The notes below the pieces were generated by a model. The model was not told the DNA's origin. It searched no databases and worked only from the letters and a program-made list of their open reading frames with translations. From Spirochaetia bacterium (lineage in GTDB: Bacteria; Spirochaetota; Spirochaetia; DSM-2461), in NCBI GenBank assembly GCA_963666985.2, contig CAXXIA010000002.1:2656001-2720000 (forward strand): a DNA stretch of 64,000 nucleotides. The letters are read 5' to 3'. Of this stretch, positions 33,795-55,934 are shown in pieces; positions within the stretch are counted from its first letter, which is position 1; each line of letters starts with the position of its first letter. Both the position numbers and the translations under genes were made by a program.

Positions 33795-34127
33795 ATGAAA
33801 ATGAAGGTAGTTAAAGATGCCGCAGGCACACCGTATGAAGCTCCAAAACATTTTGGTGTTTACGGTATTCAAAAATTTGTACAGGAATCCGAAAGAGTGA
33901 AAGTTTCCTATTCTTATTTCCAGCCGGATGGCGGCTGTGAAATGACCGGCACTCCGACGGAGAAGATTTACTACGTTGTAAAGGGCTCCATAACAATCAA
34001 AGGAAAAAATGAAAGTCATGTGCTCAATCAGGGAGACATAATTTTCATTGCCGCGAATGAAGAGCGTGCAATGTCGATTAACGACGGCAAGCCTGCCGAA
34101 GTGCTCGTTTTTGTTATTAAGCCGTAA
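33795..34127 (+). CDS. Cupin domain protein
   Basis: EKIYYVVKG...GDIIFIAANEERAMSIN cupin pattern; AAGGAG RBS (start 33795 or 33801). Confidence 0.85.
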   Translation: MKMKVVKDAAGTPYEAPKHFGVYGIQKFVQESERVKVSYSYFQPDGGCEMTGTPTEKIYYVVKGSITIKGKNESHVLNQGDIIFIAANEERAMSINDGKPAEVLVFVIKP

Positions 34128-34145
34128 TTTTGCAGGAGATGGAAA

Positions 34146-34910
34146 ATGAAAGATTTGTTCAGACTTGATGATAAAGTCGCCGTCGTTATCGGCGGCGCAG
34201 GCGGAATCGGCCAGTCCTGTTCCCTCGCTCTCAGTCAGCAGGGCGCCAAGGTGGTTATCGCCAGCCGGAATCGTGAGGCCATTGAAAAGGCGGCGGTTGA
34301 GATTAATAAAGAAACAGGGAATGAAACGGCCTTTTTTACGGTTGATACCTCCGACGAGGCAACCATCGGCAATCTGGTTGATCAGACCGTAAGCCGGTTC
34401 GGAAAGGTTGATATTCTGGTAAACGCCCAGGGGATGAATAAGAAAGGTCTTATTCTGGACTTCCCGGCTGAAGAATGGGACAAGCTTTTTGAGGTGAACG
34501 TTAAGGGTGTGATGCTTTGCTGCCGTACCTTCGCAAAGGCTATGAAGGAAAAGGGCGGAAAGATCATCAATATGTCTTCGGTTCGGGGCATCAGGGGAAC
34601 CGGCGGCGGAAATACCCCCTACGGCGCGACCAAGGGCGCCGTCGATATGATTACCCGAATGCTGGCGGCCGAATGGGCCGAGTATAATATCAATGTCAAC
34701 GCCATGGCTCCTTCCCTTGTTCTGACCGATGCCGTTAAAAAGGCCGTTGCTCCGGACCGTTTGAAAATGCTTGCCGCAAGCAGCCTGTTCAAGCGCCTCG
34801 GAACTCCCGAAGAAATGGCCGGCGCCTGTGTGTTTCTCGCCTCGCCCGCGGCCGATTTCATCACGGGACAAATCATTTACATTGACGGCGGTTTGACGGC
34901 CGTCGGTTAA
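34146..34910 (+). CDS. SDR oxidoreductase, candidate phloroglucinol reductase
   Basis: IGGAGGIG, ASRN (NADPH-type), YGATK; specific function inferred from cluster context. Confidence 0.8.
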   Translation: MKDLFRLDDKVAVVIGGAGGIGQSCSLALSQQGAKVVIASRNREAIEKAAVEINKETGNETAFFTVDTSDEATIGNLVDQTVSRFGKVDILVNAQGMNKKGLILDFPAEEWDKLFEVNVKGVMLCCRTFAKAMKEKGGKIINMSSVRGIRGTGGGNTPYGATKGAVDMITRMLAAEWAEYNINVNAMAPSLVLTDAVKKAVAPDRLKMLAASSLFKRLGTPEEMAGACVFLASPAADFITGQIIYIDGGLTAVG

Positions 34911-34946
34911 TTTGAAATTTTCATAAGTGACGTTTGGCGACTGGCC

Positions 34947-34984
34947 AAAAAGGCCGGATGGTGCATGACCCGCCGGCTTTTTTT
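34947..34984 (+). terminator. Probable bidirectional intrinsic terminator
   Basis: AAAAAGGCCGG...CCGGCTTTTTTT between convergent genes. Confidence 0.65.
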
Positions 34985-35050
34985 ATTCCCAAACGGGCGA
35001 GAGAAGCGAAGCATTATGGCAAAGCGGAGGGGCTGCGAAGAAGCTCCGCT

Positions 35051-35476
35051 TCAGGACAAGCTCCGGGTATTGAACCCTTTTATTTTTTCATAGATTTCAG
35101 GCAGTTTTTCTTCCAGATTTAAGGACTTCATGTCGGGGCCTGTCCAGATATGAAAGGATGTCGCCGTGCTGAGCGGAGCGGTCTCGCCGGAGCGAAACAG
35201 TTCGTATTCAAGTTCCAGTTTTTTCGGAGCATAGGATTTAACCTTCGTTTTTATCAGCAGGCTGTCGGGGTAATACGCCGGAGCAAGGTACTGAATGTTC
35301 AGGTTGACCATTGCGGGGTTGATGCCCAGCGAATCCATGTCCTGATAGGGAAATCCGATCTTGGCCATGATTTCCATACGGGCGATTTCATACCACAAGG
35401 GGTAAACAGCATGGTGCGCGATGCCCATTTTATCCACATCCGGATACCGTGTTGCAATGGAAGTTTCACAGATCAT
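35051..35476 (-). CDS. Acyl-CoA thioesterase (YbgC/4HBT hotdog fold)
   Basis: RYPDVDKMGIAHHAVYPLWYEIAR; start at ATG 35476. Confidence 0.88.
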   Translation of the reverse strand: MICETSIATRYPDVDKMGIAHHAVYPLWYEIARMEIMAKIGFPYQDMDSLGINPAMVNLNIQYLAPAYYPDSLLIKTKVKSYAPKKLELEYELFRSGETAPLSTATSFHIWTGPDMKSLNLEEKLPEIYEKIKGFNTRSLS

Positions 35477-35504
35477 TTTCAGCCGTCCCTTCTTTATAAT
35501 ATAG

Positions 35505-35537
35505 CCTGAGGCAATTTCATACTCCATGAAATTGCTT
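35505..35537. repeat. Palindromic REP-like element (inverted copy of 30659-30691)
   Basis: CCTGAGGCAATTTCAT-ACTCC-ATGAAATTGCTT. Confidence 0.7.
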
Positions 35538-35673
35538 CTATCTGATGCCCGAAATCCCCCCGAACGCGCTGAGGGGGGGGGGCAAAAGCCGCTGTTTTTT
35601 GGATTCACCTCACCGTGTAATAAAAACGAAGCGCTTTGAGCCTCGCGGCTTTTGGGAAGAAATCCTATTCCAT

Positions 35674-35726: not shown

Positions 35727-36593
35727 TTAGGCTTTGGTCAGATAGGTCATTCCCAGGTAATGATCGGTATCCGTGAGTGCCGTGAGCTTAATCGGCGCAT
35801 ACCCTTCCTTAACGATTTCTATCTCGACGTTTTCTTTTTTAGGCAGCCATTCCACTTCCCAATCGCCGAAGTCGTTGGTGATTGCTTCAAAAACTTCTCC
35901 GCTTTTACGGCAGGTAATTTTGATTTTGGCGCCCACACAGACCTCTTCCATCTCTTCGGGGTAGTAAACGGTACCGGATAAGAAAACCGTGGGTACGTTA
36001 AGGTGAACGACATTCGTTTCCTTGCCTTCAAGCTCGGGCAGCTGCGTAACGCGGTTTTTGGCAATGATTTTAGACACTTCGCTTTCGGGGTTGTCCAAAT
36101 CGCCGAACACCAACGCGCCGTTGGGGCACGCCTCGACACAGCGCGGCTTTTTATACTCGGCACCCAGGTATGAAAGATAATTCGGATCATCCAGCAGCTC
36201 GGCGCACATGTTGCACTTTTGGGGCAGCTGTTTTTCTTCGTTCCAGTAGATCGCTCCCAGGGGACATGCGTCCGCAATCGCTTTTTGTCCCTTGGCTTTT
36301 ACAGGATCGATAATAACGATTCCGTCATCTCTTTTATAAACGGCTCCGTCCTTGGCCGCTTTCATGCAGGCCGGATCGGCGCAGTGTGAGCACGGAGTCG
36401 GAACCGTCGCCACTTTAATATGGCGGGAGTCGTCTCCGCGTTCCCATTCGCGGATGTCCATCCAAAATTGTCCCATCATGGGCTGAGAGGCGGACAGCTT
36501 TGTATCATAACCGCAGTGTTCATCTTTACAAGCGGTGTAGCAACAGTAGCAGGCCATGCAGGCTTTTGAGTCTATAGCAATTCCTAATCTCAT
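35727..36593 (-). CDS. Transhydroxylase beta-subunit-like Fe-S protein (three [4Fe-4S])
   Basis: CMACYCCYTAC, CSHCADPAC, CNMC...RCVEACP; third Cys group degenerate (DPVKAKGQKAIADACP); C-terminal beta-sandwich domain. Confidence 0.85.
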   Translation of the reverse strand: MRLGIAIDSKACMACYCCYTACKDEHCGYDTKLSASQPMMGQFWMDIREWERGDDSRHIKVATVPTPCSHCADPACMKAAKDGAVYKRDDGIVIIDPVKAKGQKAIADACPLGAIYWNEEKQLPQKCNMCAELLDDPNYLSYLGAEYKKPRCVEACPNGALVFGDLDNPESEVSKIIAKNRVTQLPELEGKETNVVHLNVPTVFLSGTVYYPEEMEEVCVGAKIKITCRKSGEVFEAITNDFGDWEVEWLPKKENVEIEIVKEGYAPIKLTALTDTDHYLGMTYLTKA

Positions 36594-39265
36594 TTTTTTA
36601 CCGCTTCCTTCGCTTTATTTTTGATTTTCTCCTGCATATGGAAGAATCCGTTACCCTCGATGATTTCAACGCATGTTTCGGCATCGGCATCGCCTTCTTT
36701 GGCAACCTTATCCAGCTTATGCTCGAAATACTGACCTTGAGGTATCGGGCCGTCGTACTTGCATACGTCGATGAGTGTTGAATTCGGCGCCATCCCGGGA
36801 ACCATATCGCCTATGAGCCGGCCCGGAGTAAGAACGTTGACGCAGCCGCCGATGTCCATGGAGCATTCACCGGGCTTTACGGGATTGTAAATGCCCGAAG
36901 AGCCGTAGGCGTGGATGGTGTTCTCCTCAACGCGGTAGGTTACCCGCGCGACACAGAGAACGCTTCCCCGCTCGTTGAACAAGAGAATGAGGTCTCCGTC
37001 TTTTATACCCTTTTCTTCCGCCTTTTTCGGGTGGATACGGGCGACAAGATAAGGGTTGCCGTTGATATACACGCGGTTTTCGGGGATTTCCCAGAACCAG
37101 GGCGTCGAGGAGTTGTGCTGTGTATGATAATCGAAGCGCGGGTGCGGGCTGATCAGGTGGAACGGATATTTTTTCGCCTTGAGGGAATGATGTCCTTCCC
37201 AGCTGTATTTATAGGTCGCGATGGGCGTGCGAACCTCGTCCTGAGGGGCCCAGTAGAGGAGCGACTCCGAGACGAACTCGAATTTTCCCGTAAAGGTGCC
37301 GAGCCTGCCTTCTTCCTGAAAGACCTTGTGGTTCGGCGTATCGCAGGGACGGTCTTCCACGAACCATCGGAATCCGGGATGACGTTCCCAATCCTCGGGC
37401 ACACCGGCAATGTAGTAGCCTTTTTTGGTAAAATCTTCCCAGCTGATTTTTTCGCACAGGTCGGATTTTTCCCAGAAACGCTTGCACCAGGCAAGCTCGT
37501 CCCGGCCTTCGGTAAATTCTTCGCCCCAGCCCAGACGCTCCGCGATTTGTGAGAAAATCCAGTAGTCCGAGCGGGATTCCCAAAGAGGTTCAATCGCCTT
37601 GTCCTGGAAAACAACGACCTGCCAGCTGCAGCCCGTTTGCGAGTGCGACTGATATCCGCCGTTTCCCGAGTTACAGAATTCACCGATGTCATAGCGTTCC
37701 AGATTGGTACACGCGGGCAGAATAACGTCGGCGAAACGGGATTCACCGTGAAAGTGAATGTCCTGATTCACGACGAATTCAAGTTCCGGACTTCGGTACA
37801 TTTTGACCCATTTGTTCGTGTCGAGCATACTGCCCATGAACGTGCCGCCGTATCTGTAGAACAGATGAACCTTGTTGGAGCCGGGTTCCGGATAGACGTG
37901 TTCGGTAAATTCCTGGTCGATACCGCCGCCGCAGAAGCCTTCTCCGTACCACTCGTAGTGGCCGTCTAAAATAGCATCCGGAAGGTTCGGACGGTAGAGC
38001 TTCTGCGTGACGCAGTTAACCGCGGTTTTGTCGGCAATCGGCTGATTGGCAATCTGGCTTAAGGGATCGGAATAGCCGCCGAACCAGAAGTTGTAGTCCA
38101 TCGGCGCGCCTGTTGTACCGGACCAGATATTCTGTCCCGGTTTGCCCATGCCCTGCATGGCGAAGAGCTGGACCATGAGTCTGGCGAATTCGGTACCGTT
38201 CGCCGTACGGCAAACTCCGCCGAAGCCGCCGCGCAGACCGGAGCCGCCCATGGTTTTGGTCGTTCCCCAGCGGCGGGCCAGCGCCTTAATATCAGCCGCC
38301 GGAATTCCCGTTTCGTTCTCACACCATTTCGGTGTTTTTGCCAGTCTGTCCGCGCCGTTACCCAGAATGTAGTCGGCCCATTCGTCAAATCTGTGGGCGT
38401 GCTTGGCGATGTATTCCTTATCGTAGAGACCTTCTGTGAGCCAGACATAGGCGATGCCCTCGCAAAGAGCCGCGTCCGTTCCGGGGCGGGGGCCGAACCA
38501 CTTATCCGCCTGCTTAACGGAAGAGAAATTGTTAAACGGATCGATATAGATGAATTGTACGCCCAAATCATCGAGCCAGTGACGCCACATGGTGGATTCG
38601 TTGCCGGCATATCCGCCTCTTGTCGTGTCGGGATCGTGCGACCACATAATCATGGTTTCAACGTTTTTCAGCGCGTCTTCCAAGAGGTCGAAGGCTTCGG
38701 TCCCGCCGAGCCGCCAATGGTAGCCGTAAGTATGCGGACAGCCCCATGTAAAACCTTCCCAGGAATCGGGATTGTCCAGAATTTGCGTGTAGCCGAGCAT
38801 TCTGAAAAAGCGGGCAAACGTGGATAATTTGTAGCCCAGAAGTCCCCAGCTGTGGTGGGAACTTGTAATGGCCGTAACGGACTCCTTGCCGTACGTATCC
38901 TGCACGCGCTTAATTTCGCGGGCGACCAGCGACAAAGCCTCGTCCCAGGTTGCCTTGCGGTAACCCGATTTCCCGCGGTTGTCCGTATTGCGGTTTTGAC
39001 CGTCGGGTGTTTCGACGAAATCCTCACGGATCATCGGGTAACGGATGCGGTCATATGAATAAGCGCGGTTTTTCTCGGTTAAGGCGATAAACGCGGGAGA
39101 CGTTTTTCTATGAGGGGTAAACTCCTTGCCGCGTGCTTTTATCGTCCAGCCCTTAGGATCGGTTTCGTTAAATACAATAGGCCTTACGCGTCTGATAACA
39201 CCATCTTCGGTATGTATCGCGATAGGTCCTCCGACACAGATACTGTGAGTAATTTTCTCGGCCAA
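36590..39265 (-). CDS. athL: Mo-bisPGD enzyme, pyrogallol-phloroglucinol transhydroxylase alpha-subunit-like
   Basis: GGPIAI start with no Tat signal or FS0; SSHHSWG, NPDSWEG (Mo-ligating Ser), SPHPRF, GGCVNVLTP closely follow Pelobacter AthL as recalled. Confidence 0.8.
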   Translation of the reverse strand: MAEKITHSICVGGPIAIHTEDGVIRRVRPIVFNETDPKGWTIKARGKEFTPHRKTSPAFIALTEKNRAYSYDRIRYPMIREDFVETPDGQNRNTDNRGKSGYRKATWDEALSLVAREIKRVQDTYGKESVTAITSSHHSWGLLGYKLSTFARFFRMLGYTQILDNPDSWEGFTWGCPHTYGYHWRLGGTEAFDLLEDALKNVETMIMWSHDPDTTRGGYAGNESTMWRHWLDDLGVQFIYIDPFNNFSSVKQADKWFGPRPGTDAALCEGIAYVWLTEGLYDKEYIAKHAHRFDEWADYILGNGADRLAKTPKWCENETGIPAADIKALARRWGTTKTMGGSGLRGGFGGVCRTANGTEFARLMVQLFAMQGMGKPGQNIWSGTTGAPMDYNFWFGGYSDPLSQIANQPIADKTAVNCVTQKLYRPNLPDAILDGHYEWYGEGFCGGGIDQEFTEHVYPEPGSNKVHLFYRYGGTFMGSMLDTNKWVKMYRSPELEFVVNQDIHFHGESRFADVILPACTNLERYDIGEFCNSGNGGYQSHSQTGCSWQVVVFQDKAIEPLWESRSDYWIFSQIAERLGWGEEFTEGRDELAWCKRFWEKSDLCEKISWEDFTKKGYYIAGVPEDWERHPGFRWFVEDRPCDTPNHKVFQEEGRLGTFTGKFEFVSESLLYWAPQDEVRTPIATYKYSWEGHHSLKAKKYPFHLISPHPRFDYHTQHNSSTPWFWEIPENRVYINGNPYLVARIHPKKAEEKGIKDGDLILLFNERGSVLCVARVTYRVEENTIHAYGSSGIYNPVKPGECSMDIGGCVNVLTPGRLIGDMVPGMAPNSTLIDVCKYDGPIPQGQYFEHKLDKVAKEGDADAETCVEIIEGNGFFHMQEKIKNKAKEAVKK

Positions 39266-39268: not shown

Positions 39269-39721
39269 CTACACCTCCACCAGCGATTGCGCGAGTTCGG
39301 AGGTTGGATCGATTTTAATCATACCGCCGACAAGAGAGCCGTTCACCACCTCAAAACACCGCAGGTTGTACACCTCCGACAAGGCAACCTTATACGTTTT
39401 ACCGTCGGCCGCTTTGTAAACGGAACCTGTTTTGAACATGTGCTGTACCATCATTTTTCCGCTCTTCGGCATTTTGCCTTTGCGCTTAAAGCTCGGCTGA
39501 ACGCCAAATCGCTCATCACGTAATACTCCGACGTTTTCCCAGCCGTCTATGGCCGAAAGCGCGTCTTCCATCGCCTTTGTTTCCTTAAGGGTCGGCACGC
39601 CCGTGCCGTTCAGGCCTTGGTACCAAAGCTGAAGGGGAGAGATTACTTCCCCTTGATAACCGTCAAGGTACTTCTTTACCAAAGCCGTCAGCTCCGAAGG
39701 ATCGTTTGGGATTTTTGCCAT
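39269..39721 (-). CDS. Hypothetical protein (150 aa)
   Basis: Tightly packed in the operon with an AAGGGAG RBS; no recognised motif. Confidence 0.7.
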   Translation of the reverse strand: MAKIPNDPSELTALVKKYLDGYQGEVISPLQLWYQGLNGTGVPTLKETKAMEDALSAIDGWENVGVLRDERFGVQPSFKRKGKMPKSGKMMVQHMFKTGSVYKAADGKTYKVALSEVYNLRCFEVVNGSLVGGMIKIDPTSELAQSLVEV

Positions 39722-39725: not shown

Positions 39726-40139
39726 TCAGCTTCTCCCTTTTGTCTTTGTTTTTTGGTTTTCCCTGTTCGGGATGAAAAAATCTATGTCTTCGTTCAAATC
39801 CACATCCGCGCTTGGAAACATGTTTATGATGGCTTCTTCCGCACTGCACATAACGCCGTAAATGTTAAAATCCCTGCCGAATTCCACCGCGAATACGGAT
39901 TCGGCCACATCCAGCAGGTTTTTAACGATCGCGGTACCTTTGTCGTCTTTTCCGAAGCTTTTTCGACCGCCTTCGGAAAATCCCAAGGTATGAGAAAAAA
40001 CCATATATTCGTCCGCCGCATTAAAAATGTACAAAAAGTCATCATGAGAACGCCCCGCGACCATGGTACACGGGGAGAGTTCCTTTAATGCCGCTTCGGG
40101 ATCTTTTCCAAGAACGCTGATGTGAATTTCTTCATTCAT
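39726..40139 (-). CDS. Hypothetical protein (137 aa)
   Basis: ATGA overlap with the upstream BKACE gene; no recognised motif. Confidence 0.65.
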   Translation of the reverse strand: MNEEIHISVLGKDPEAALKELSPCTMVAGRSHDDFLYIFNAADEYMVFSHTLGFSEGGRKSFGKDDKGTAIVKNLLDVAESVFAVEFGRDFNIYGVMCSAEEAIINMFPSADVDLNEDIDFFIPNRENQKTKTKGRS

Positions 40140-40984
40140 ACGTGTTTTGTCAGACCAAGAAGATCGCGGGCATCCTGTGCCGTCGCGATTTCCCTGTTGG
40201 TAATCTCGGACAGTTTCACGGCACGTTCGACAAGCTGGGCGTTTGTTGCCAGGACTCCTTTGTCGAAGTAGATGTTGTCTTCAAGACCCACGCGAAGTCC
40301 GTCGCAGCCTTCGGCAAGCCCCAGCAGCATGCAGGGAACGTGGAAACGGCCGATACCCGTGATGCTCCAGGTTGAACCCGGCAGCATTTTCGGCAAGAGG
40401 TAGCCCAGGCTCTCGGCATCACCGTCCATACCGCCGGCCACGCCCAGGACGAACTGATAATGCACGGGTTCTTTTATAAAACCGTGTTTAACATAGTATT
40501 TAATCGCACCCATCATGCCGGCGTCGAAAATCTCGCATTCGGGTTTAATATTAAGCTCTTGTGAAACCATGCCCAGCTTCTCAAGAAACGCCGGGGTATT
40601 CAGGAACACGCTTTTGTAGCCCCAGTTAATTGTACCGGGATCGTAGGAACACATTTCGGGCTTGCACTCGGCAAGCTGGTTCAGGCGGAGTTCGTCCGAG
40701 AACTTTGAACCGGAAGTTGTCAGGTTGAGTACGACATCAAGATTTTCTTTCGCAAGACCTTCACGAGCTTTGTCGCAAACTTCCTTGAACACTTCCGTGT
40801 CCATGCAGTTTACCCCATCCTTGTCCCTGACATGAATGTGGGCGATCGCGGCACCCGCTTTGGCGCAGTTCACAACGTCCTGTGCGATTTCATCGGGTGT
40901 GATCGGTACGTTGGGGTTTTGCGCTTTTGTTGTGCCCGCACCGGTGAGACACGCTTGAATAATGACCTTTTTCGATTTTGCCAA
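40136..40984 (-). CDS. Beta-keto acid cleavage enzyme (BKACE/DUF849), candidate triacetate cleavage enzyme
   Basis: PITPDEIA, AHIHVRD, RVGLEDN; TTG start with GGAGG RBS. Confidence 0.88.
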   Translation of the reverse strand: MAKSKKVIIQACLTGAGTTKAQNPNVPITPDEIAQDVVNCAKAGAAIAHIHVRDKDGVNCMDTEVFKEVCDKAREGLAKENLDVVLNLTTSGSKFSDELRLNQLAECKPEMCSYDPGTINWGYKSVFLNTPAFLEKLGMVSQELNIKPECEIFDAGMMGAIKYYVKHGFIKEPVHYQFVLGVAGGMDGDAESLGYLLPKMLPGSTWSITGIGRFHVPCMLLGLAEGCDGLRVGLEDNIYFDKGVLATNAQLVERAVKLSEITNREIATAQDARDLLGLTKHV

Positions 40985-48127: not shown

Positions 48128-49015
48128 ATGGCCTATATGCCGCTTGATAAAAGCAAAATGTATCTTGATCGCAGCAAAATGACCAGGATTTACGATTTGA
48201 GTCAGCCTTGGGGCGTGGACACCCCCCTCTGGCCTTTCCCCGGCCCTCGTCAGGATTTACAGTTTCCACGAGGTCAGTACCTCGGACGTTTTCACAAACG
48301 GACATTCACTTACACGGGTACGCTTCATGCCGGTACCCATATGGACGCTCCCAACCATGTTCTCCATGAGGAAGAGTGCGACCGTGAGCGGAACGGATAC
48401 ACCCTGGCCGAGATTCCTCTGGAGTATGCCATCGGAACAGGTGTTATTCTCGACATGCGCCACTTGCAGAAAGAGTTTGAAGAAACATGGGTTACGGGTT
48501 TTGAAAAGGGCCTTTGGCGTATCATCACTCCTGAAGATGTTGAGAAGGCGTGTGCTAAGGACGGCCTTGAAATCCGTGAAAACGACTGGGTGGTTATCAA
48601 CACGGGCTTCCATAAATATTGGAGAACGAACAACGACAAGTATTACAACTACTATCCGGGTATGGGCCCTGAATTGGCGAAATATCTTGTCCATGAGAAG
48701 AAAATAAAAGGCATTACCGGTACATGGGGCGCAACCGACGCACCTTTATGGCACTGTCCGCTTTCGGAGCAGATGCCCTGGCTTGATAAAGCGTATCGAA
48801 AAGCTTACGGCACGGATCCGGCGCTTGAGTATCCGGATTATGAACCTTGTCACCGCATTTACATGCAGGCGGGCGTGTGCACGGTGGAGAATGCCGGCGG
48901 TGAAATCGATACGGTTACCGGTAAGCGTATGATTATCGCGGCGTTTCCTTTCCGCTGTGAAATAGCCGACGGCGGGTTTGTTCGTCTTGCCGCTTGGGAT
49001 GAGGGGTCTTTTTAA
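48128..49015 (+). CDS. Cyclase-family metallohydrolase, candidate dihydrophloroglucinol cyclohydrolase
   Basis: HAGTHMDAPNH (HxGTHxDxPxH), VINTG, H...VEN. Confidence 0.85.
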   Translation: MAYMPLDKSKMYLDRSKMTRIYDLSQPWGVDTPLWPFPGPRQDLQFPRGQYLGRFHKRTFTYTGTLHAGTHMDAPNHVLHEEECDRERNGYTLAEIPLEYAIGTGVILDMRHLQKEFEETWVTGFEKGLWRIITPEDVEKACAKDGLEIRENDWVVINTGFHKYWRTNNDKYYNYYPGMGPELAKYLVHEKKIKGITGTWGATDAPLWHCPLSEQMPWLDKAYRKAYGTDPALEYPDYEPCHRIYMQAGVCTVENAGGEIDTVTGKRMIIAAFPFRCEIADGGFVRLAAWDEGSF

Positions 49016-49977
49016 TGAACTCTCTTAGCGATATCCAAAAAATCGCTGTTCTCGGGGCCGGTACCATGGGCCCCGGAATCGCACAGATTTTTGCCATCGG
49101 CGGTTATCCGGTCACAATGTGGACAAGAAGTGAAGCCACAAGAGAAAAGGCGAAAGAAACACTCTATAAGAGTCTTAAAACTTTTGCCGAAGAGGATTTA
49201 ATCCCCGCCGATAAGGTTGAGGAAGTTTTTGCCCGAGTCGATTTTGCACTTACCGTGGAAGAGGCCGTTAAAGGTGCCGATTTCATTATGGAAACAATCG
49301 TTGAGAACAAAGACGCCAAATCCCAGCTTTTCGCTCAGCTTGATCAATGCATCGGCGACGATTGCATCATCGCATCGAACACATCGGGGCTGAACATCTT
49401 CGAAATCGTTCCCGAAAACCGCCTGAAGCAAATGATGATCGCCCATTGGTACGCTCCCGCTCAGCTCATCCCTCTGGTCGAGGTTGTGAAGAGCGAACAG
49501 GCACCCGAGGCTTATGCATCCATTACCGTGGACTTGCTTGAAAAATGCGGTAAAACCGCGGTGCTTATGAAAAAGTTCATTCGCGGCTATATCGCGAACA
49601 GAATGCAGATGTGTCTGAATCAGGAACTCTTTTATCTTCTTGACAACGGCTACTGCTCCGCGGAGGACGTTGATAAAGCGGTCAAAGCAAGCTTTATTCC
49701 CCGTGCCGTTGTTCTGGGATTGTGCAAGCGTGCCGATTTCGGCGGACTTGATATGACCGCCAACAACTATAAAAACAAGAGCTACACCATGCCTCCGGAA
49801 GTGGATATGCCCAAAACCTTGGCGGATCATATCGAGAAAGGTGAATTGGGACTTAAAACGGGCAAAGGATTCTACGACTACGGCAATGTTGATAAACAGG
49901 CTCTCTTGGCAAAGCGGGACAAGCAGCTTTTTGAGATTTTCAAGGTTGCTAAGAAATTCATGGACGACCCGGTGTAA
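49015..49977 (+). CDS. 3-hydroxyacyl-CoA dehydrogenase-family protein, candidate 3-hydroxy-5-oxohexanoate dehydrogenase
   Basis: GAGTMG, ASNTS, HWYAP, GYIANR, LGLKTGKGFY. Confidence 0.85.
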   Translation: MNSLSDIQKIAVLGAGTMGPGIAQIFAIGGYPVTMWTRSEATREKAKETLYKSLKTFAEEDLIPADKVEEVFARVDFALTVEEAVKGADFIMETIVENKDAKSQLFAQLDQCIGDDCIIASNTSGLNIFEIVPENRLKQMMIAHWYAPAQLIPLVEVVKSEQAPEAYASITVDLLEKCGKTAVLMKKFIRGYIANRMQMCLNQELFYLLDNGYCSAEDVDKAVKASFIPRAVVLGLCKRADFGGLDMTANNYKNKSYTMPPEVDMPKTLADHIEKGELGLKTGKGFYDYGNVDKQALLAKRDKQLFEIFKVAKKFMDDPV

Positions 49978-49995: not shown

Positions 49996-50652
49996 ATGTC
50001 AATGAACAAAGAAGCGGCACTTCAGGAGGTGCTGGCCCGATTTAAAGACGGACAAACCATTATGTGTGCCGGTTTTACCAACGTCGGTTCCGCCAACAAA
50101 TTGATCAAAGCCGTCTCGGATGCCGGTTTTAAAGATTTGAATATCATCGCAAACGATGCCGGTAACGACAAGCAAGACGGTATCGGCACATTCATCTGCC
50201 GAAAACAGGCTCAATCGCTCACGGCAAGCCATGTCGGTCTTAATCCTAAGGTCGCGGAACAAATGAACGAAGGAACTTTGAAAGTAACCTTGGTTCCTCA
50301 AGGAACTCTCGCCGAGCGTATTCGCTGCGGCGGATACGGTCTGGGGGGTGTTTTGACGCCCACGGGCGTCGGTACCGTTGTGGAAGAAGGCAAGCAAGTG
50401 ATTGAACGTGACGGGAAGAAATATCTGCTTGAAACGCCTCTGCGCGCCGAAATCGCACTGATTAAGGCATGGAAGGCCGACAGAAACGGCAACCTCGTTT
50501 ATCGGCGGGCGGCACGGAATTTCAATCCGGTTATGGCGACGGCGGCCGATTTCGTTATTGCCGAGGTGGAAGAAATTGTCGAAACCGGTGAGATCGATCC
50601 CGATGCGGTCATGACTCCGGGAATCTGTGTCGACATGATCGTCAAGCTCTAA
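49996..50652 (+). CDS. atoD: 3-oxoacid CoA-transferase subunit A
   Basis: PQGTLAERIR, ARNFNPVMATAA. Confidence 0.88.
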   Translation: MSMNKEAALQEVLARFKDGQTIMCAGFTNVGSANKLIKAVSDAGFKDLNIIANDAGNDKQDGIGTFICRKQAQSLTASHVGLNPKVAEQMNEGTLKVTLVPQGTLAERIRCGGYGLGGVLTPTGVGTVVEEGKQVIERDGKKYLLETPLRAEIALIKAWKADRNGNLVYRRAARNFNPVMATAADFVIAEVEEIVETGEIDPDAVMTPGICVDMIVKL

Positions 50653-50665
50653 GGAGGAGCGTCGA

Positions 50666-51304
50666 ATGACAGGCAGAGAATATATTGTTTCGCGGGCGGC
50701 GAAGTTTTTCAAAGACGGCGACGTCGTCAACCTGGGCATCGGTATGCCCACGCAGGTCGCAAATTATCTCCCCGAGAATGTGCACATTATCCTTCAGTCG
50801 GAAAACGGCTTTATCGGAATCGGCGCCACTCCTTCCGAAGACGAATGGGATCATGATGTTGTAAACGCGGGCGGACAGCCGTCATCAATCGTGGCCGGCG
50901 GCTGCACGTTCGACAGCGCGACAAGCTTCGGCCTTATTCGCGGCGGACACGTGGATGCTACGGTTTTGGGCGCGCTGGAGGTTGATCAGGAGGGTAATCT
51001 GGCAAACTGGATTATCCCGGGCGTCAGAGTTCCCGGTATGGGCGGCGGCATGGATCTGGTCGTCGGCTCAAACCTTGTCATCATAACCATGGAACACTGC
51101 ACCAAGAAGGGTGAGTCCAAGATTCTCAAGAAGTGCACGCTTCCTTTAACGGCCGCGGGCCAAGTCGACTATATCGTTACGGATATGGGCGTTTTTCACT
51201 GTACGGATAAGGGCCTTGTTCTTGAAGAGCTCGCTCCCGGTGTAACGGTAGATGATGTTAAGGCGAAAACAGAAGCCGATTTGATTCTATCGGACAGTCT
51301 TTAA
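50666..51304 (+). CDS. atoA: 3-oxoacid CoA-transferase subunit B
   Basis: NLGIGMP, QSENG (catalytic Glu), PGMGGGMDL. Confidence 0.88.
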   Translation: MTGREYIVSRAAKFFKDGDVVNLGIGMPTQVANYLPENVHIILQSENGFIGIGATPSEDEWDHDVVNAGGQPSSIVAGGCTFDSATSFGLIRGGHVDATVLGALEVDQEGNLANWIIPGVRVPGMGGGMDLVVGSNLVIITMEHCTKKGESKILKKCTLPLTAAGQVDYIVTDMGVFHCTDKGLVLEELAPGVTVDDVKAKTEADLILSDSL

Positions 51305-51319: not shown

Positions 51320-52720
51320 TTGACGATCCAGTTAATTATTATTGTGGCTTATTTTGCCCTTACCGTCGCCATCGGCATGATTGCTCAAAAGAAATCAAAA
51401 TCCGCTACGGCATTTCACGGTGCGGGACTGGGTGTGCTTATGTGCGTTTGTGCCGGCACCGGCGAATGGCTGGGGGGCACATCAACGACCGGAGTATCCG
51501 AGTACGGTTATACGTATGGTCTCTCCGGCTCCTGGTACACGCTCGCAAACGGTATCGGCGTTATCTTCCTGGCTTTACTGTTCGCAAAGCTTTACAGAAG
51601 TCTTGAAACGGTTACCGTTCCGGGAATTTTGGAGAAATTCATCGGCGTACACGCCCGTGTCGTTTCAAGCATCATGCTGACCTTCGTTATGCTCGCCGTC
51701 GGCATTTCCCAGATGATTGCCGCAGGCACATTGGGTGTTACGCTGCTGGGGTTGGACTTCAACGTAGCCGTAATCGCTTTCGCGATTGTCTTCATTATCT
51801 ATACTCTGGCGGGCGGTATGAACGCGGTCGCCAGTACCAATATTCTGCATCTGTTCGCAATGTACGGCGGTATCGTGATTGCCCTTTTATTCGCGCTGAA
51901 AGCCGTCGGCGGCATGGGCGTTGTTTCGGAAACTCTTCCCGAATCATATTTTTCCATGACCGCCATCGGTATGCCGAAGGTTTCGTCCTGGATTATCGCT
52001 TCCCTGCTCGGCGCCTGTACCGCTCAGGCCGGTATTCAGCCGATCCTGGCCGCCAAGGATACGAATGTCGCTAAAAAGGCCGCGATTATTACGGCCGTCA
52101 TTGTTGCTCCCTTCGGTCTGCTGACCGCTCTTCTCGGTATGATCGCCAAGGTTCAGTTCCCCAACCTCGAGAACGCCAAGCTTGCTCTGCCGACGTTAAT
52201 GCTCAGCCTGCCTCCCGTAGCCGGAGGTATCGTCCTTGCATCCATTCTCGCGGCGATCCTTTCAACGGTTTCGCCTATCATCCTGGCATCGGGAACGATG
52301 ATTACAAAGGATGTTTACCATAGAATCCTGAAAACCGACGCCAGCGACGAACAGGTTCTCAGAATGTCCAGAATTACCACCGCGATAGCGGGGGTGATCT
52401 GTACAATCGGCGCACTTCTCATGTACGGTTCCACGCGAATCCTGGACATTGTCTACTTCGCGTACTCAATTCGGGGCGCTCTGTTTGTCGTTCTTCTGTT
52501 TGGTATTTATTGGAAAAAGCTTTCCGAAAAGGGTGCCGTTTACAGCATGATTTTAACCGCCGCCGTAGGCTGTTTCTGGGTTGTGTTTAAAGCAATCACC
52601 GGCAGCAATCCGATCCACGCCGCGTTTACGGAAACCTATGCGGCGGTGATTACCGCGACAATTGCCTCGGTGATCTTTACGAAGATATTCCCTAAAGATA
52701 TGTCTGCAAAGAAATTATAA
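51320..52720 (+). CDS. Sodium:solute symporter family transporter
   Basis: About 13 TM; WLGGTSTTG, TVPGILEKFIG, AAILST; TTG start. Confidence 0.85.
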   Translation: MTIQLIIIVAYFALTVAIGMIAQKKSKSATAFHGAGLGVLMCVCAGTGEWLGGTSTTGVSEYGYTYGLSGSWYTLANGIGVIFLALLFAKLYRSLETVTVPGILEKFIGVHARVVSSIMLTFVMLAVGISQMIAAGTLGVTLLGLDFNVAVIAFAIVFIIYTLAGGMNAVASTNILHLFAMYGGIVIALLFALKAVGGMGVVSETLPESYFSMTAIGMPKVSSWIIASLLGACTAQAGIQPILAAKDTNVAKKAAIITAVIVAPFGLLTALLGMIAKVQFPNLENAKLALPTLMLSLPPVAGGIVLASILAAILSTVSPIILASGTMITKDVYHRILKTDASDEQVLRMSRITTAIAGVICTIGALLMYGSTRILDIVYFAYSIRGALFVVLLFGIYWKKLSEKGAVYSMILTAAVGCFWVVFKAITGSNPIHAAFTETYAAVITATIASVIFTKIFPKDMSAKKL

Positions 52721-52746: not shown

Positions 52747-54054
52747 ATGATGGAACCGATTTCCATTGCAGTCCTAGGCATTATTCTGCTGATCATTCTG
52801 CTCGCAATGGGCATGAATATCGGTATTACTATGTTTGCCGTAGGCTTTCTCGGCTGCCTGATGATCCGCGATTGGAATGCCGCGATAGGCGTTCTGAAAA
52901 CCGTACCGTTTAACCAGAGTATGACCTATTCCTATACGGTTATACCGCTTTTCGTTCTGATGGGACAATTCGCCTTTCACTCGGGGATGTCCGCCGATCT
53001 CTTCGACTGTGCCAACAAGTGGCTTGGGGGGTTGAAGGGCGGACTTTCCATGGCGACCATCATGGCCTGTGCCGGCTTCGCGGCCATTTGCGGCTCCACC
53101 GCCGCCACCGCGGCGACCATGGGCGTCGTCGCTCTTCCGGAAATGCGTAAAGCGGGCTATAACGACGGTCTTTCGACCGGCTCCATTGCCGCCGGCGGGA
53201 CACTCGGCATTCTCATCCCCCCCAGTACGGGCTTCATTATTTACGGCATCGTCGCCGAGCAGTCCATCGGGAAACTGTTTATGGCGGGAATTATCCCCGG
53301 AATCGTTTTGGCGGTGTGCTATATGATTTCCGTTTCCGTACAGGTTAAGATCCGTCCCGAGCTGGCCCCGCCCACAAATAAGTTCGGTTTTAAAGAAAAA
53401 TTAATCGCCCTGAAGGGCGGCGCCGCGATGATCGCTCTTTTCCTTATCGTTATCGGCGGTATGTTCATCAATCTCTTTACGGCAAATGAGGCGGCGGCCG
53501 TCGGCGCGTCTCTGGCCCTGATTTATCTTATCGCCCGCCGCCGTTTTTCACTGAAGGTTCTTATAGCCTGTCTGCGCGATACCGTGAAAACTTCCGCCAT
53601 GGTGTTTCTCATCATGATCGGCGCCTACGTGTTCGGATCTTTCCTGGCCATCGCACGGCTTCCCATGACTCTTGCGGCCTTCGTTGAGGGACTTGCCGTA
53701 AGCCGATATGTGATTCTGGCCGTAATCGTCCTGCTTTATGCCGTTATGGGCTGTCTTATGGATTCCCTGGCAATGGTTATGCTGACCGTGCCCATTTTCC
53801 TTCCGATAATCATGGGTCTCGGATTCGATCCCATCTGGTACGGCGTTTTGATGATCATGGTTATGGAAATGGGCCTGATTACGCCGCCGGTTGGAATGAA
53901 TGTCTATATCGTCGCGGGCGTCGCGAAGGATGTTCCCTTAACAAGAATCTTCAGAGGCGTAACGCCGATGGTTTTTGCGATGCTGGTGGCGATTGTGATT
54001 GTTATCGCCTTGCCTCAGCTTTCACTCTGGCTCCCCAGCTTCATGGCCGGTTAG
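52747..54054 (+). CDS. dctM: TRAP transporter large permease
   Basis: IPLFVLMG, GTLGILIPPS, GLITPPVGMN. Confidence 0.92.
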   Translation: MMEPISIAVLGIILLIILLAMGMNIGITMFAVGFLGCLMIRDWNAAIGVLKTVPFNQSMTYSYTVIPLFVLMGQFAFHSGMSADLFDCANKWLGGLKGGLSMATIMACAGFAAICGSTAATAATMGVVALPEMRKAGYNDGLSTGSIAAGGTLGILIPPSTGFIIYGIVAEQSIGKLFMAGIIPGIVLAVCYMISVSVQVKIRPELAPPTNKFGFKEKLIALKGGAAMIALFLIVIGGMFINLFTANEAAAVGASLALIYLIARRRFSLKVLIACLRDTVKTSAMVFLIMIGAYVFGSFLAIARLPMTLAAFVEGLAVSRYVILAVIVLLYAVMGCLMDSLAMVMLTVPIFLPIIMGLGFDPIWYGVLMIMVMEMGLITPPVGMNVYIVAGVAKDVPLTRIFRGVTPMVFAMLVAIVIVIALPQLSLWLPSFMAG

Positions 54055-54108
54055 TTCCTATCCGGAACATGCATGCTGTTATTTATATATAATTTTTGGA
54101 GGTTGTTA

Positions 54109-55239
54109 ATGAAAAGGACTTTTGCATCGTTTATTGTCATTCTTTTGACGATCGGACTGGTGGCCTTTACCGGCTGCGGTAAGTCAAAAGCGGAAGCTGG
54201 CGCCGACGGATCGGCCGCTAAGGATTCCGGAAAAGTGTACGAACTGATCGTACAAAACCACGATCCCGCCACCAGCATCTGCGGGCAGTACGTTGAAGCC
54301 TGGGGCTCGGAAGTCGAGAAAGCTTCAAACGGACGCATCAAGTTCGCTTACTACCACGGCGGCTCTCTTGTCGGCGCGGGCGACTCGGTTAATGCCGTAG
54401 TCAACAGTACTGCGGATGTCTGCTGGAGTGCCGCGACCATTTATTCCGGTCAGTTCCCCATCTCGGAATTCATCCAGCTCCCTCTTTCCGGCATCAATTG
54501 CGCCCGGATGGGATGCGAAGTCATGCTGGATATGTACAAAGAGATTCCGGCCTTCCAGAAGGAGTATTCCGAATTCAAGCCCATTATGCTCGGCAGCTGT
54601 ACTTACGCGCCCGTGAGTACAACCGTGAAAAAGCTTCAGACGGTTAACGACATCCAAGGCCTGCGTATCCGCGCCCCCGGTTCCACCTGCGCGCTGTGGT
54701 GTACCGCCGTCGGTTTCAGTCCGATGACCGTCGCCACGCCCGAAACGTATGAATCACTCGAAAAGGGCGTTATTGAAGGCTGCTTGAACGACTGGCACAA
54801 TATTTCCGCATTCAAGCTGTATGAAAACCTTGACTATATCATGGACTATCCGACTCCCGGTTCACCCATTTTCCTTCTGATGAATAAAGGAAAATATGAT
54901 TCCATGCCGGCTGATCTTCAGGCGATCATTGATAAGTACTCCGATGAATACGCCTCTCAAATGGCGGGGATCTACTGGGATTCCACACGAGCTTGGATTT
55001 ATGACAACGCCGAAGAATTCGGTGTGGAGATTTACCAGCCGTCCGATGAACTGTACGCTCACTTCACGGCCGACACTGTCAAGGATCAGGTACACGCCAA
55101 GTACATCGAGTACCTTAACGGTTTCAATCTTGATGGACAGGCGATATACGATCAGTGTATGGAAATCGTTTCTCGTTATACCGACAAATACGCCGATCCC
55201 TGGGCGGAACCCGTCGATATCGAGGATTTTAAAGGCTGA
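54109..55239 (+). CDS. dctP: TRAP transporter substrate-binding lipoprotein
   Basis: Lipobox FTGC, SNGRIK, GLRIR, YESLEKGVIEG; start at ATG 54109. Confidence 0.88.
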   Translation: MKRTFASFIVILLTIGLVAFTGCGKSKAEAGADGSAAKDSGKVYELIVQNHDPATSICGQYVEAWGSEVEKASNGRIKFAYYHGGSLVGAGDSVNAVVNSTADVCWSAATIYSGQFPISEFIQLPLSGINCARMGCEVMLDMYKEIPAFQKEYSEFKPIMLGSCTYAPVSTTVKKLQTVNDIQGLRIRAPGSTCALWCTAVGFSPMTVATPETYESLEKGVIEGCLNDWHNISAFKLYENLDYIMDYPTPGSPIFLLMNKGKYDSMPADLQAIIDKYSDEYASQMAGIYWDSTRAWIYDNAEEFGVEIYQPSDELYAHFTADTVKDQVHAKYIEYLNGFNLDGQAIYDQCMEIVSRYTDKYADPWAEPVDIEDFKG

Positions 55240-55246
55240 AGCCGCG

Positions 55247-55378
55247 CCGGACTGTTGAAAAATGATTCGCGGAATCGCTGTGCGGTTCCGCTGTTTGGGG
55301 AGATTCGATTCGCAGATTACGAGCAAATCCCGCTGCCGCCGAACACCGCTTACGCGTAAAAGTTTTTCAACGGCCCGG
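55247..55378. repeat. ~132-bp element bounded by 16-bp inverted repeats (MITE-like or RNA stem)
   Basis: CCGGACTGTTGAAAAA ... TTTTTCAACGGCCCGG (14/16). Confidence 0.5.
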
Positions 55379-55406
55379 TTGAGTCTGCGTTATACGGAAA
55401 GGATTG

Positions 55407-55934
55407 ATGCAAATGAAAAAATTTACTGAGATAACCAATAAACTTACAGTGTACGTCAGCTATCTGAGCATGGTGTCGGTGATATTCATCATGCTGTATA
55501 TGACGCTCGATGTCATCTTGAGACATGTTTTTAACTCGCCGATCAAAGGCGGCTATGAAATGACCACTCTTGCCATGGTTGTTCTTATTTTCACATCCTG
55601 GTCGTATACGCAGACGGTTAACGGACATATCCACGTGACAATGCTGATTAGGGCTTTGCCGAGAAAACCGAGGTTTATCATATTCGCGATTACATCGATG
55701 TTTTCCGCCGCGGTGATTGTTATTGCTACGTATGCCGCTTTTCTGCAGATGCTCTACACGTACGAGAAATGTAATTGTACGGGTATGCTCCTTATTCCGC
55801 ATTGGCCGTTCATTCTTGTGGAATGTATCGCTTTGGGCTACTTCGCTTTAATACTGCTGCGCGATGCCATACGGGCGATAATGGCGATCTTCAACGAAGA
55901 GCTCGCGCAGGAGATTGAATCTCACTGGGCCTGA
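55407..55934 (+). CDS. dctQ: TRAP transporter small permease
   Basis: 4 TM, DVILRHVFNSPI, GHIHV; start uncertain (55404/55407/55413). Confidence 0.85.
   Translation: MQMKKFTEITNKLTVYVSYLSMVSVIFIMLYMTLDVILRHVFNSPIKGGYEMTTLAMVVLIFTSWSYTQTVNGHIHVTMLIRALPRKPRFIIFAITSMFSAAVIVIATYAAFLQMLYTYEKCNCTGMLLIPHWPFILVECIALGYFALILLRDAIRAIMAIFNEELAQEIESHWA

Follow-up and report, generated by a model that had tools for sequence, protein, structure and literature searches.

The 21 genes at positions 33795-55934 of the window (the whole 64,000-nucleotide stretch of spirochaete DNA analysed) belong to a system separate from the canonical phloroglucinol pathway, common in Oscillospiraceae and often found beside the canonical one. 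Judged by sequence, this is not the characterised pathway: its five key enzyme types are distantly related, as sister forms, to the known pyrogallol/phloroglucinol enzymes. The block likely serves the anaerobic breakdown of plant-derived trihydroxybenzenes. The best explanation (probability about 0.42) is that it would encode a sister route that starts from pyrogallol-type phenols, passes through a phloroglucinol-type ring and ends in acetyl-CoA. When a rival with the same chemistry on a different ring is counted in, phloroglucinol-type chemistry becomes quite probable.

All 21 open reading frames are intact, with no internal stops. The gene families that the original prediction placed in this interval are confirmed by Pfam and NCBIfam matches, and its probable spirochaete host by three FlaA genes. 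The gene order does not follow the pathway order as had been proposed, since the genes fall into about five units on both strands. In place of the single transhydroxylase-like alpha/beta pair first described, there are two unlike AthL-type molybdoenzyme pairs (alpha1/beta1 and alpha2/beta2), the alphas of which are only 31% identical to each other. The supposed completeness of the pathway holds from the free trihydroxybenzene onward but not upstream: there is no decarboxylase or demethylase among the genes of the block, and no URO-D-family methyltransferase was found in the host genome.

Table 1. Features of the block, with positions in the window.
Feature	Position	Strand	Evidence
Cupin, 110 aa	33795..34127	+	PF07883; 77-81% to Desulfobacterota loci; 30-38% to the L095 and L096 cupins (canonical loci)
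SDR of PGR clade, not PGR orthologue; predicted ring reductase	34146..34910	+	34% to L096 PGR; clade SH 99
4HBT-type acyl-CoA thioesterase, accessory	35051..35608, probable start near 35476	-	PF03061; 8/80 cyclase loci
Beta1, BthL-like Fe-S subunit	35727..36593	-	Cys pattern; like BthL, without fourth-cluster cysteines
Alpha1, AthL-like Mo-bisPGD subunit; predicted transhydroxylase	36590..39265	-	765 bits to 4v4c_A; tree: AthL sister clade
150-aa protein, upstream of alpha1	39269..39721	-	No Pfam/NCBIfam family; Atlas matches <0.9 only; 48/79 alpha1 loci
137-aa protein, travels with alpha1/alpha2	39726..40139	-	No Pfam/NCBIfam family, no Atlas match; 14/79 alpha1 loci
BKACE; predicted 3,5-dioxo-acid lyase	40136..40984	-	PF05853; 45-47% to TGAW-type lyases; Gly at Kce Glu14 / TAL Trp16 position
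Thiolase, clade linked to alpha1-beta1	41006..42205	-	TIGR01930 above cut-off; 38/79 alpha1 loci
LysR regulator, divergent from alpha2	42269..43282, probable start near 43162	-	Domain match
Near-consensus promoter-like site, by LysR/alpha2	43261-43288	+	Sequence
Alpha2, second AthL-like Mo subunit; predicted hydroxylase or dehydroxylase	43325..46057	+	472 bits to 4v4c_A; rebuilt pocket (alignment, tree)
Beta2, BthL-like subunit	46061..46876	+	Full set of 16 cysteines, as needed by four Fe-S clusters; 174 bits to 4v4c_B
MerR regulator, divergent from cyclase	46927..47817, probable start 47733	-	PF13411; 41/80 cyclase loci
Cyclase-family metal hydrolase, DPGC sister subfamily; predicted ring-opening C-C hydrolase	48128..49015	+	PF04199; 27-29% to DPGC-type proteins
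3-Hydroxy-acid dehydrogenase, TfD sister	49015..49977	+	PF02737/PF00725; 34-35% to TfD-type proteins
3-Oxoacid CoA-transferase subunit A	49996..50652	+	TIGR02429 above cut-off
3-Oxoacid CoA-transferase subunit B	50666..51304	+	TIGR02428 above cut-off
Sodium:solute symporter (SSS)	51320..52720	+	PF00474; 60-72% orthologues in like clusters
TRAP large permease DctM	52747..54054	+	TIGR00786; 76% to L030
TRAP binding protein DctP, Arg kept in RIRAP	54073..55239	+	PF03480; best PDB matches 7nr2, 4n6d, E ~1e-26
TRAP small permease DctQ	55404..55934	+	PF04290

The block is an insertion into this spirochaete, between htpG and an Rrf2 gene. These two genes lie 2.3 kb apart in a relative of the same genus (G011), where the interval holds only three paralogues of a 165-aa gene; here the block occupies it. 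The variant cyclase was not found in 40 relatives. One contig assembled from run X1 spans 33103-54494, and contigs from run X2 join both block edges to host genes; both runs come from one and the same sample, which may itself have supplied the assembly, so they are not independent of it. Among the marks of a genomic island, absence from the syntenic site of a relative is present, while a search of the block for GC anomaly, mobility genes and terminal repeats found none.

The canonical anaerobic phloroglucinol pathway of Clostridium scatologenes comprises PGR, DPGC, TfD and TAL, as set out by Zhou et al. 2023 (PMC10470551), and as this pathway requires, the SDR, cyclase, 3HCDH-family dehydrogenase and BKACE genes stand together in one cluster here. 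Identities (Table 1) refer to proxies from canonical clusters, namely L095, L096 and L097, rather than to the C. scatologenes enzymes themselves. The L095 cyclase is 61% identical to CsDPGC, according to the supplement of PMC10470551. CsPGR shares 58-61% identity with the PGRs of F. plautii-type clusters, and the L096 PGR, our comparator for the SDR, was taken as a confirmed phloroglucinol reductase by its score of 500 bits on 5G4K/5G4L.

The SDR and PGR form one clade against generic SDRs (SH 99), in which the SDR is the sister. It reads SSVRGIRG where PGR has SQRSKRG, and at the NADPH-binding TR(S/N)-type motif it has ASRN against TGRN in 5G4K, retaining Arg-Asn and not Thr. The cyclase has an isatin-hydrolase fold and retains HxGTHxDxPxH, EPCH and VEN, with metal residues H67, H71, D73, H77, H242 and E254. 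At the DPGC site Trp20/Tyr22 (residue numbers as in PMC10470551) it has Trp35/Phe37, keeping the Trp-x-aromatic pair, and its PLWPF motif, shared by 90/93 of the clade, differs from PxWPY. The dehydrogenase keeps the catalytic Ser124, His144 and Asn195 of TfD, with HWYAP instead of HFWNP; HWY(A/S/T)P occurs in 72/75 of its clade. In the BKACE, LTGAG aligns with ITGAE of Kce (2y7d), which bears out the reported replacement of the amine-binding Glu of the lysine-pathway enzyme, and Gly also stands where the characterised triacetate lyase (TAL) has Trp. The Kce Glu14 position is Gly in 41 of 53 clade members, the others being Ala (2) or unassigned (10).

In the PDB, both alphas match best to AthL of the Pelobacter acidigallici pyrogallol-phloroglucinol transhydroxylase (AthL/BthL, PDB 4v4c). 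By score and alignment, neither is an AthL orthologue, a true orthologue reaching 1060 bits on 4v4c_A. Both share with AthL the first domain (PF21423), the Asp-Ser-Trp Mo-ligand motif and His144. Alpha1 retains S143, H144, Y152, D174, S175, W176, Y404, F468 and Y560 (4v4c numbering) and differs by R153K and W354F, both fixed across its clade, which is a separate sister clade in the tree; we take Arg153 and Trp354 of AthL to be substrate-pocket residues. Alpha1 orthologues of 85-88% identity occur in Sporobacter, Sporomusa, Oscillospiraceae and a second spirochaete genome. Alpha2 belongs to a distant class that retains none of S143, Y152, R153, W354, Y404 and Y560, and has no N-terminal Fe-S motif that could bridge Mo to beta. 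Beta1 has the three-cluster Cys pattern of BthL, whereas beta2 possesses a third Cys group that is missing in 4v4c_B. The fourth-cluster motif is found in 16/22 alpha2-linked betas and in 0/73 alpha1-linked ones. The rebuilt alpha2 pocket and the fourth beta2 cluster suggest net electron transfer.

What had been named as a refutation is thus partly borne out, in that the proteins do not group with the characterised enzymes: the cyclase forms its own clade separate from DPGC, the BKACE has Gly for Trp and the alphas are not AthL orthologues. The type of chemistry originally predicted is nevertheless well supported by these alignments and trees, in that every enzyme family matches a pyrogallol/phloroglucinol step, the SDR lies in the PGR clade and the BKACE is devoid of the amine-binding Glu.

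The gene set is conserved as a unit. In 80 genome loci chosen by the cyclase alone, many of them short, the dehydrogenase family co-occurs in 62, the SDR in 43, MerR in 41, BKACE in 38 and the thiolase in 27, a recurrence that is more than chance. A like set is clustered in Sporobacter termitidis, Sporomusa and Oscillospiraceae, and the variant system also occurs in Desulfobacterota. The block thiolase is up to 75% identical to thiolases of other loci, against 50% to the next thiolase of the host; cupins adjoin canonical clusters too. Among 201 sampled Oscillospiraceae, 49 carry the variant and 33 the canonical hydrolase. Canonical DPGC is also kept in 20 of the 49 carriers, the variant cyclase is kept in all 12 genomes having alpha1 and canonical DPGC, and one genome (G005) holds a true AthL and has both the canonical module and the variant cluster in full. 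The variant SDR is present in 27/49 carriers, while neither it nor PGR was found in 17/49, even by profile search of these mostly fragmented assemblies; PGR is rarer where the variant SDR was missed (5/23) than where it was found (15/26).

The steps that we infer for the sister route are as follows. SSS and TRAP transporters would take up the substrate, and alpha1/beta1 would act as a redox-neutral transhydroxylase converting pyrogallol to phloroglucinol. Alpha2/beta2, with its fourth Fe-S cluster, would perform a net redox step, most simply the hydroxylation of pyrogallol to the co-substrate 1,2,3,5-tetrahydroxybenzene. The SDR would then yield dihydrophloroglucinol, the cyclase 3-hydroxy-5-oxohexanoate and the dehydrogenase triacetate, which the BKACE with acetyl-CoA would convert to acetoacetate and acetoacetyl-CoA, and CoA-transferase and thiolase would complete the path to acetyl-CoA.

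We favour this route because each of the five enzyme types has its homologue in the corresponding known enzyme and critical features are kept: PGR-clade membership of the SDR, the metal motif and aromatic pair of the cyclase, the TfD triad, the AthL pocket residues retained in alpha1 and the BthL pattern of beta1. It is also favoured because S. termitidis, a described ring cleaver (see below), has the variant cluster while no canonical DPGC or PGR orthologue was found there, because one genome (G087) joins related Mo enzymes to the canonical module only, and because an acetoacetate-CoA-ligase-like gene flanks one Desulfobacterota copy. It is weakened because no block enzyme is orthologous to a tested enzyme, because canonical DPGC is so often co-kept and both systems are complete in G005, and because the pocket changes of BKACE, dehydrogenase, cyclase and alpha1 are fixed across their clades. 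The carriers showing neither reductase, with PGR no commoner where the SDR was missed, weaken it further, as do the 6/22 alpha2-linked betas without a fourth cluster and the lack of an N-terminal Fe-S motif in alpha2.

A different ring handled by the same chemistry is a serious contender, if not one to count on. The two Mo enzymes would produce a phloroglucinol substituted at position 2. In the simplest case this would be 1,2,3,5-tetrahydroxybenzene, which alpha2/beta2 would form from pyrogallol; a methyl- or carboxy-substituted analogue is the other option. The product would be reduced, opened and oxidised to a 6-substituted 3,5-dioxohexanoate; the Gly-pocket BKACE and dedicated thiolase would give acetyl units and a substituted acyl-CoA, freed by the thioesterase. 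Co-retention of the canonical module and the complete duplication in G005 argue for this, as do the variant BKACE in 49/49 carriers and the variant type of all 18 cyclase-holding loci among 79 alpha1 loci. The linked thiolase clade and four-cluster beta2 also fit, and the BKACE Trp-to-Gly change would open room at the chain end. However, co-retention is also explicable by co-inheritance of blocks under separate regulation in genomes that are kin, the thioesterase is seldom linked (Table 1), G087 has related Mo enzymes but only the canonical module to go with them, and the missing SDR is likewise not explained. We know of no substituted end product of S. termitidis, which counts against this rival. 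Quite tentatively, one may envisage a second, undescribed anaerobic ring-cleavage pathway, present in a quarter of the Oscillospiraceae sampled, in which a novel transhydroxylase and a novel four-cluster Mo hydroxylase would yield some ring that is not phloroglucinol (e.g. 1,2,3,5-tetrahydroxybenzene) and that is opened by a dedicated hydrolase-dehydrogenase-lyase trio, in a third of carriers without a phloroglucinol-reductase-like enzyme; this would be the missing syringyl-ring route of S. termitidis.

It is unlikely that the core system (alpha1/beta1, alpha2/beta2, cyclase, dehydrogenase, BKACE and thiolase) dispenses with an NAD(P)H ring reductase when it opens its ring, the SDR being an accessory entry step. 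Such a ring might, for instance, be a pyranone or an N-heterocycle that a Mo-dependent hydroxylation makes reactive, or else a keto tautomer open to direct hydrolysis. The 17 carriers point this way, together with the absence of any recurring substitute reductase from 18 stretches read from SDR-less genomes, the amide hydrolases that make up the solved relatives of the cyclase family, and the best PDB match of the dehydrogenase, the pyridine-pathway enzyme 4om8. That match is weak, though (132 bits vs 125 for 3-hydroxybutyryl-CoA dehydrogenases), the SDR of the PGR clade is present here and in most carriers, the missing role could fall to an unrelated reductase encoded elsewhere, and the carrier assemblies are mostly fragmented.

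A mosaic of separately acquired modules that do not form one working pathway is very improbable. The closest matches do differ by module (Desulfobacterota for cupin, SDR and cyclase; Oscillospiraceae for the Mo enzymes and LysR; L030 for the transporters), and no feeder demethylase was found. All 21 frames are intact, however, the same set is clustered in Sporobacter, Sporomusa and Oscillospiraceae, and the host genome has MobA/MobB-like and Ptb/Buk-like genes. Least probable of all is the known pathway in a new host: although every step is matched at family level and both alphas have AthL as their top PDB match, orthology to AthL/BthL, PGR, DPGC, TfD and TAL is contradicted by identities of 27-47%, by the separate clades, by the absence of 5G4K/5G4L from the best 60 of 174 PDB matches of the SDR and by two genomes (G001 and G005) that hold both kinds.

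Taken by itself, a spirochaete host is modestly noteworthy. We found no characterised spirochaete example in the literature searched, as had been claimed, but the novelty is weak because the supplement of PMC10470551 already predicts the canonical four genes in two Spirochaetes contigs. Of more consequence, surveys based on C. scatologenes can miss the variant: JAFGDQ01 and DUPW01, which have a canonical cluster in the PMC10470551 screen, carry the variant on other contigs, not found among the entries of the list in its accessible part. Since the variant exceeds the canonical hydrolase in the sampled Oscillospiraceae, mineralisation of tannin and lignin phenols by anaerobes may be under-counted. 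S. termitidis, described in PMC4585845 as a cleaver of syringate and vanillate rings, has a UbiD-family gene besides the variant cluster; strain DSM 10068 is cultured and seems to carry the variant system only, making the question testable now. The alpha2/beta2 class may supply transhydroxylase systems with a net redox step, for example by first making the tetrahydroxybenzene co-substrate.

Like the C. scatologenes pathway among known systems, the block groups these four families with a thiolase and a CoA-transferase. The canonical locus L095 adjoins a phloretin-hydrolase-family gene, whereas the block is tied to two Mo enzymes. In the PDB, the BKACE matches lysine-pathway Kce best (204 bits); it keeps the Kce fold and Zn-binding His pair but scores 281 bits, below the NCBIfam Kce cut-off (NF052387, 382). 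Set against AthL/BthL, alpha1/beta1 has the first domain, the Ser-ligated Mo motif, His144 and the three-cluster small subunit and lacks orthology and the full pocket; alpha2/beta2 has neither the pocket set (Y152, R153, W354, Y404, Y560) nor the three-cluster small subunit. Resorcinol hydroxylase (RhL/RehLS), the other member of the RhL/PgtL family (PMC10100899) and here compared by description rather than sequence, belongs like the alphas to the Ser-ligated Mo enzymes and is a precedent for net phenol hydroxylation by an AthL relative; unlike the block, it feeds the oxidative hydroxyhydroquinone route of denitrifiers.

The block is real, ordered and conserved. Its 21 intact genes are arranged as about five units on both strands and include two molybdoenzyme pairs, alpha1/beta1 and alpha2/beta2, that resemble AthL/BthL, the transhydroxylase of Pelobacter acidigallici (4v4c). 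Contigs from two sequencing runs (X1 and X2) of one sample span the block and bridge both of its edges; it should be noted that this sample may be the source of the assembly itself. An Atlas search with the two small block proteins returned no usable name. In Sporobacter termitidis, Sporomusa silvacetica and the Oscillospiraceae genome G005, the cyclase gene is flanked by this same set of genes.

Coordinates and strands of the block, its units and other features (G000, host genome; G011 and G017, same-genus genomes)
Feature	Position	Strand	Remark
Block	window 33795-55934		between htpG and the Rrf2 gene
Unit		+	cupin, SDR
Unit		-	LysR, thiolase, BKACE, two small unknown genes, alpha1, beta1, thioesterase
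Unit		+	alpha2, beta2
Unit		-	MerR
Unit		+	cyclase, dehydrogenase, CoA-transferase A/B, SSS, DctM, DctP, DctQ
Site inside CoA-transferase A	window 50343		one base missing in one X2 contig; X1 agrees with window
Exported 165-aa protein	window 32842-33339		without a Pfam match; G011 has three tandem paralogues at this place
IS110-family transposase	window 29396-30535		immediately left of htpG; no direct border with block
IS21 element (istA/istB)	window 15179-17193		no direct border with block
Two tandem SDRs and Fe-dependent alcohol dehydrogenase	window 4390-7791		SDRs (4390-6126) outside PGR clade in tree
Two TGAW-type BKACEs	G000:C1:54223-57400; G000:C1:735043-741377		65% and 79% to canonical TAL proxies; one beside a 3HCDH-family gene and a transporter, the other beside a thiolase, SSS and a distant cyclase-family gene
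Different 34-kb htpG-Rrf2 stretch (L131-L132)	G017:C1:1047000-1086000		defence- and integrase-looking genes, by eye

We compared the block with the canonical phloroglucinol module of the Clostridium scatologenes type, namely: PGR (SDR), DPGC (cyclase), TfD (dehydrogenase) and TAL (BKACE), using canonical-cluster proxies (loci L095, L096 and L097) as references in place of the C. scatologenes proteins themselves. The cblaster table of Zhou et al. 2023 (PMC10470551) lists at least two Spirochaetes contigs with PGR, DPGC, TfD and TAL; L095 (G001:C25) is one of those two, with identical coordinates. According to the supplement of that paper, the L095 DPGC has 61% identity to C. scatologenes DPGC; in the same genome, G001, a contig other than C25 carries an orthologue with 82% identity to the window cyclase. 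With 500 bits on PGR (5G4K/5G4L), the SDR of L096 confirms this locus as a canonical proxy.

Identity to the proxies is 27-29% for the window cyclase, 34-35% for the dehydrogenase and 45-47% for the BKACE, while the window SDR has 34% identity to the L096 PGR and 43% to the divergent SDR of L095. The window SDR has 174 PDB matches, and the best 60 of these do not include PGR (5G4K/5G4L). FastTree analysis unites the window SDR and PGR to the exclusion of generic SDRs (SH 99) and separates the window-type cyclase clade from the DPGC clade (SH 100 for both). With the proxies as references, the identities, bit scores, PDB ranking and trees rule out orthology to PGR, DPGC, TfD, TAL and AthL; the comparison with characterised enzymes, by which the original prediction was to be checked, thus leaves the window set outside them (27-47% identity). 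An AlphaFold model of the cyclase (pLDDT 87) matches isatin hydrolases at 16-22% identity, and no DPGC structure is found among its fold matches.

In the alignment of diagnostic residues, the window cyclase retains the metal ligands; PLWPF occurs in 90 of the 93 cyclases nearest to it, and PxWPY in all three DPGC proxies. The dehydrogenase retains Ser124, His144 and Asn195, with HWY(A/S/T)P in 72/75 window-type sequences and HFWNP in both TfD proxies. The BKACE lacks the Glu of Kce, having Gly at that position. Among window-type BKACEs this residue is Gly in 41 of 53 and Ala in 2, the other 10 being unassigned, and in the canonical proxies it is Trp, as it is in CsTAL (PMC10470551). Further cyclase subfamilies, encoded as tandem pairs or duplicated single genes, were seen in L098, G079, G081, G164 and L141, some of these genomes also having alpha1-sister enzymes, which suggests that ring-opening modules number more than two.

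The best PDB match of both alpha subunits is Pelobacter AthL (765 bits for alpha1, 472 bits for alpha2), and the two share 31% identity. By hand-counted AthL numbering, alpha1 retains S143, H144, Y152, D174, S175, W176, Y404, F468 and Y560, with R153K and W354F, whereas alpha2 retains only H144, D174, S175, W176 and F468; we take these to be pocket residues. In the AlphaFold model of alpha1, the pocket loops have pLDDT below 50. L125, a true AthL orthologue scoring 1060 bits, branches outside the alpha1 clade in a quick tree. The third cysteine group is missing from BthL, from beta1, from each of the 73 alpha1-linked betas and from each of the 14 betas in the sister clade nearest to alpha1. 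The group is present in beta2 and, with the window counted in, in 16 of 22 alpha2-linked betas. Because of this difference, the sequences suggest that alpha1/beta1 would be redox-neutral and alpha2/beta2 electron-exchanging. Against electron exchange by the latter, 6/22 alpha2-linked betas are without the extra cluster and alpha2 is without an N-terminal Fe-S motif. Pelobacter massiliensis is said to carry out a multi-step transhydroxylation of hydroxyhydroquinone. A plasmid search with alpha1 gave 9 records at 40-43%.

The variant system, i.e. the block's sister versions of the canonical enzymes, is widespread. The best 80 genome loci for the cyclase (75-85% identity) belong to Desulfobacterota, Oscillospiraceae (including S. 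termitidis DSM 10068), S. silvacetica, Peptococcaceae, Synergistaceae and two Spirochaetota. Among 201 Oscillospiraceae genomes (the family of G005; related rather than independent, so that p-values carry no weight, with at most four candidates scored per genome and groups read from hit tables), 49 carry the variant cyclase, 33 canonical DPGC and 20 both. Alpha1 orthologues (at least 63%) occur in 40 of the 201, all with the variant cyclase, and 8 of the remaining 9 carriers have a 50-53% sister of alpha1. Alpha2-like matches occur in 45, of which 44 are carriers. Likewise, 18 of 79 metagenome loci of alpha1 hold a cyclase, always of the variant type (18/18). In G068, the variant cyclase (L139, G068:C10) adjoins an N-terminally extended AthL-like gene and genes for carboxyltransferase-family, ETF-like and acyl-CoA-pathway proteins, a hint of a dicarboxylic intermediate there. 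In the full-text literature, mostly non-subscription papers, we found neither a description of the variant system nor a characterised spirochaete with such a pathway.

The genome of S. termitidis encodes alpha1 (two copies), alpha2, a third AthL-like protein and a member of the UbiD family; searches of it for orthologues of DPGC and PGR found none. According to PMC4585845, syringate and vanillate support the growth of S. termitidis via O-demethylation and ring cleavage. This phenotype with the variant system only points to phloroglucinol itself as the predicted substrate, as do the conserved catalytic residues, the AthL-like alpha1 pocket and genome G087, where related molybdenum enzymes accompany the canonical module alone. 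Other observations point to a different ring: canonical and variant modules are retained together in the same genomes, G005 holding both routes complete; the hydrolase-dehydrogenase-lyase trio is never mixed between types in the loci read; and the pocket changes are fixed across the variant clade.

Neither phloroglucinol nor another ring explains the carriers that show no variant SDR. The variant-type BKACE is present in 49/49 carriers, the variant SDR in 26 (plus one by profile search), PGR only in five others, and neither reductase was seen in 17. These counts do not support PGR standing in for the variant SDR. Among 18 stretches from SDR-less carriers we saw no recurrent substitute reductase; the genes that do recur nearby are limited to NUDIX, DUF3870 and molybdenum-cofactor genes. 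In several Oscillospiraceae (L225, L228-L231, L234 and L235), the two small unknown genes are separated by a NUDIX gene, and the BKACE is followed by genes of the moeA/moaA type.

The host has MobA/MobB-like and Ptb/Buk-like genes. Neither canonical DPGC nor PGR was found elsewhere in the genome, the best match to the L096 PGR being the window SDR. A search of the genome (93% complete) for URO-D-family methyltransferases found none, and the single UbiD gene, sited outside the block, has 33% identity to that of Sporobacter; therefore, the block would start from a free polyhydroxybenzene. The proposed pathway, originally called apparently complete, would be so only from that compound onward, with neither decarboxylase nor demethylase in the block. 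In DctP an Arg of the usual carboxylate-binding motif is retained, and the PDB entries that match this protein best, 7nr2/7nsw among them, are presumably aromatic-acid binders, so acid precursors may also be imported. URO-D-family (O-demethylase-like) genes adjoin AthL-like genes in Sporomusa and Sporobacter (L107, L119 and L122), an adjacency that carries little weight because each such genome has more than 30 URO-D-family genes.

The host is a spirochaete, since its genome has three FlaA genes and 14 control genomes have none. In G011, CNNM and htpG are followed by three paralogues of the 165-aa gene and then by Rrf2, ptsP and proC, and the htpG-Rrf2 gap is 2.3 kb, compared with 23.4 kb in the window; the different stretch in G017 suggests an insertion hotspot. 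The window-type cyclase was found in 0 of 40 relatives and 1 of 400 other Spirochaetota genomes. Five of these relatives have 29-30% matches (L110-L114), which probably belong to another pathway because an AllG-family gene adjoins them. The GC content and codon use of the block are like those of the host, and a search for mobility genes and terminal repeats found none. Since the nearest matches of its genes vary module by module, the block appears to be an old or mosaic acquisition.

Taken together, the interest lies in a widespread, predicted sister system and its two molybdenum enzymes rather than in the spirochaete host. Judged from sequence, this system probably works like the pyrogallol/phloroglucinol route, and to that extent the proposed degradation island stands. 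Its enzymes are not those characterised: the cyclase forms its own clade, alpha1 and alpha2 are not AthL orthologues, and the block is outside the characterised enzyme set.
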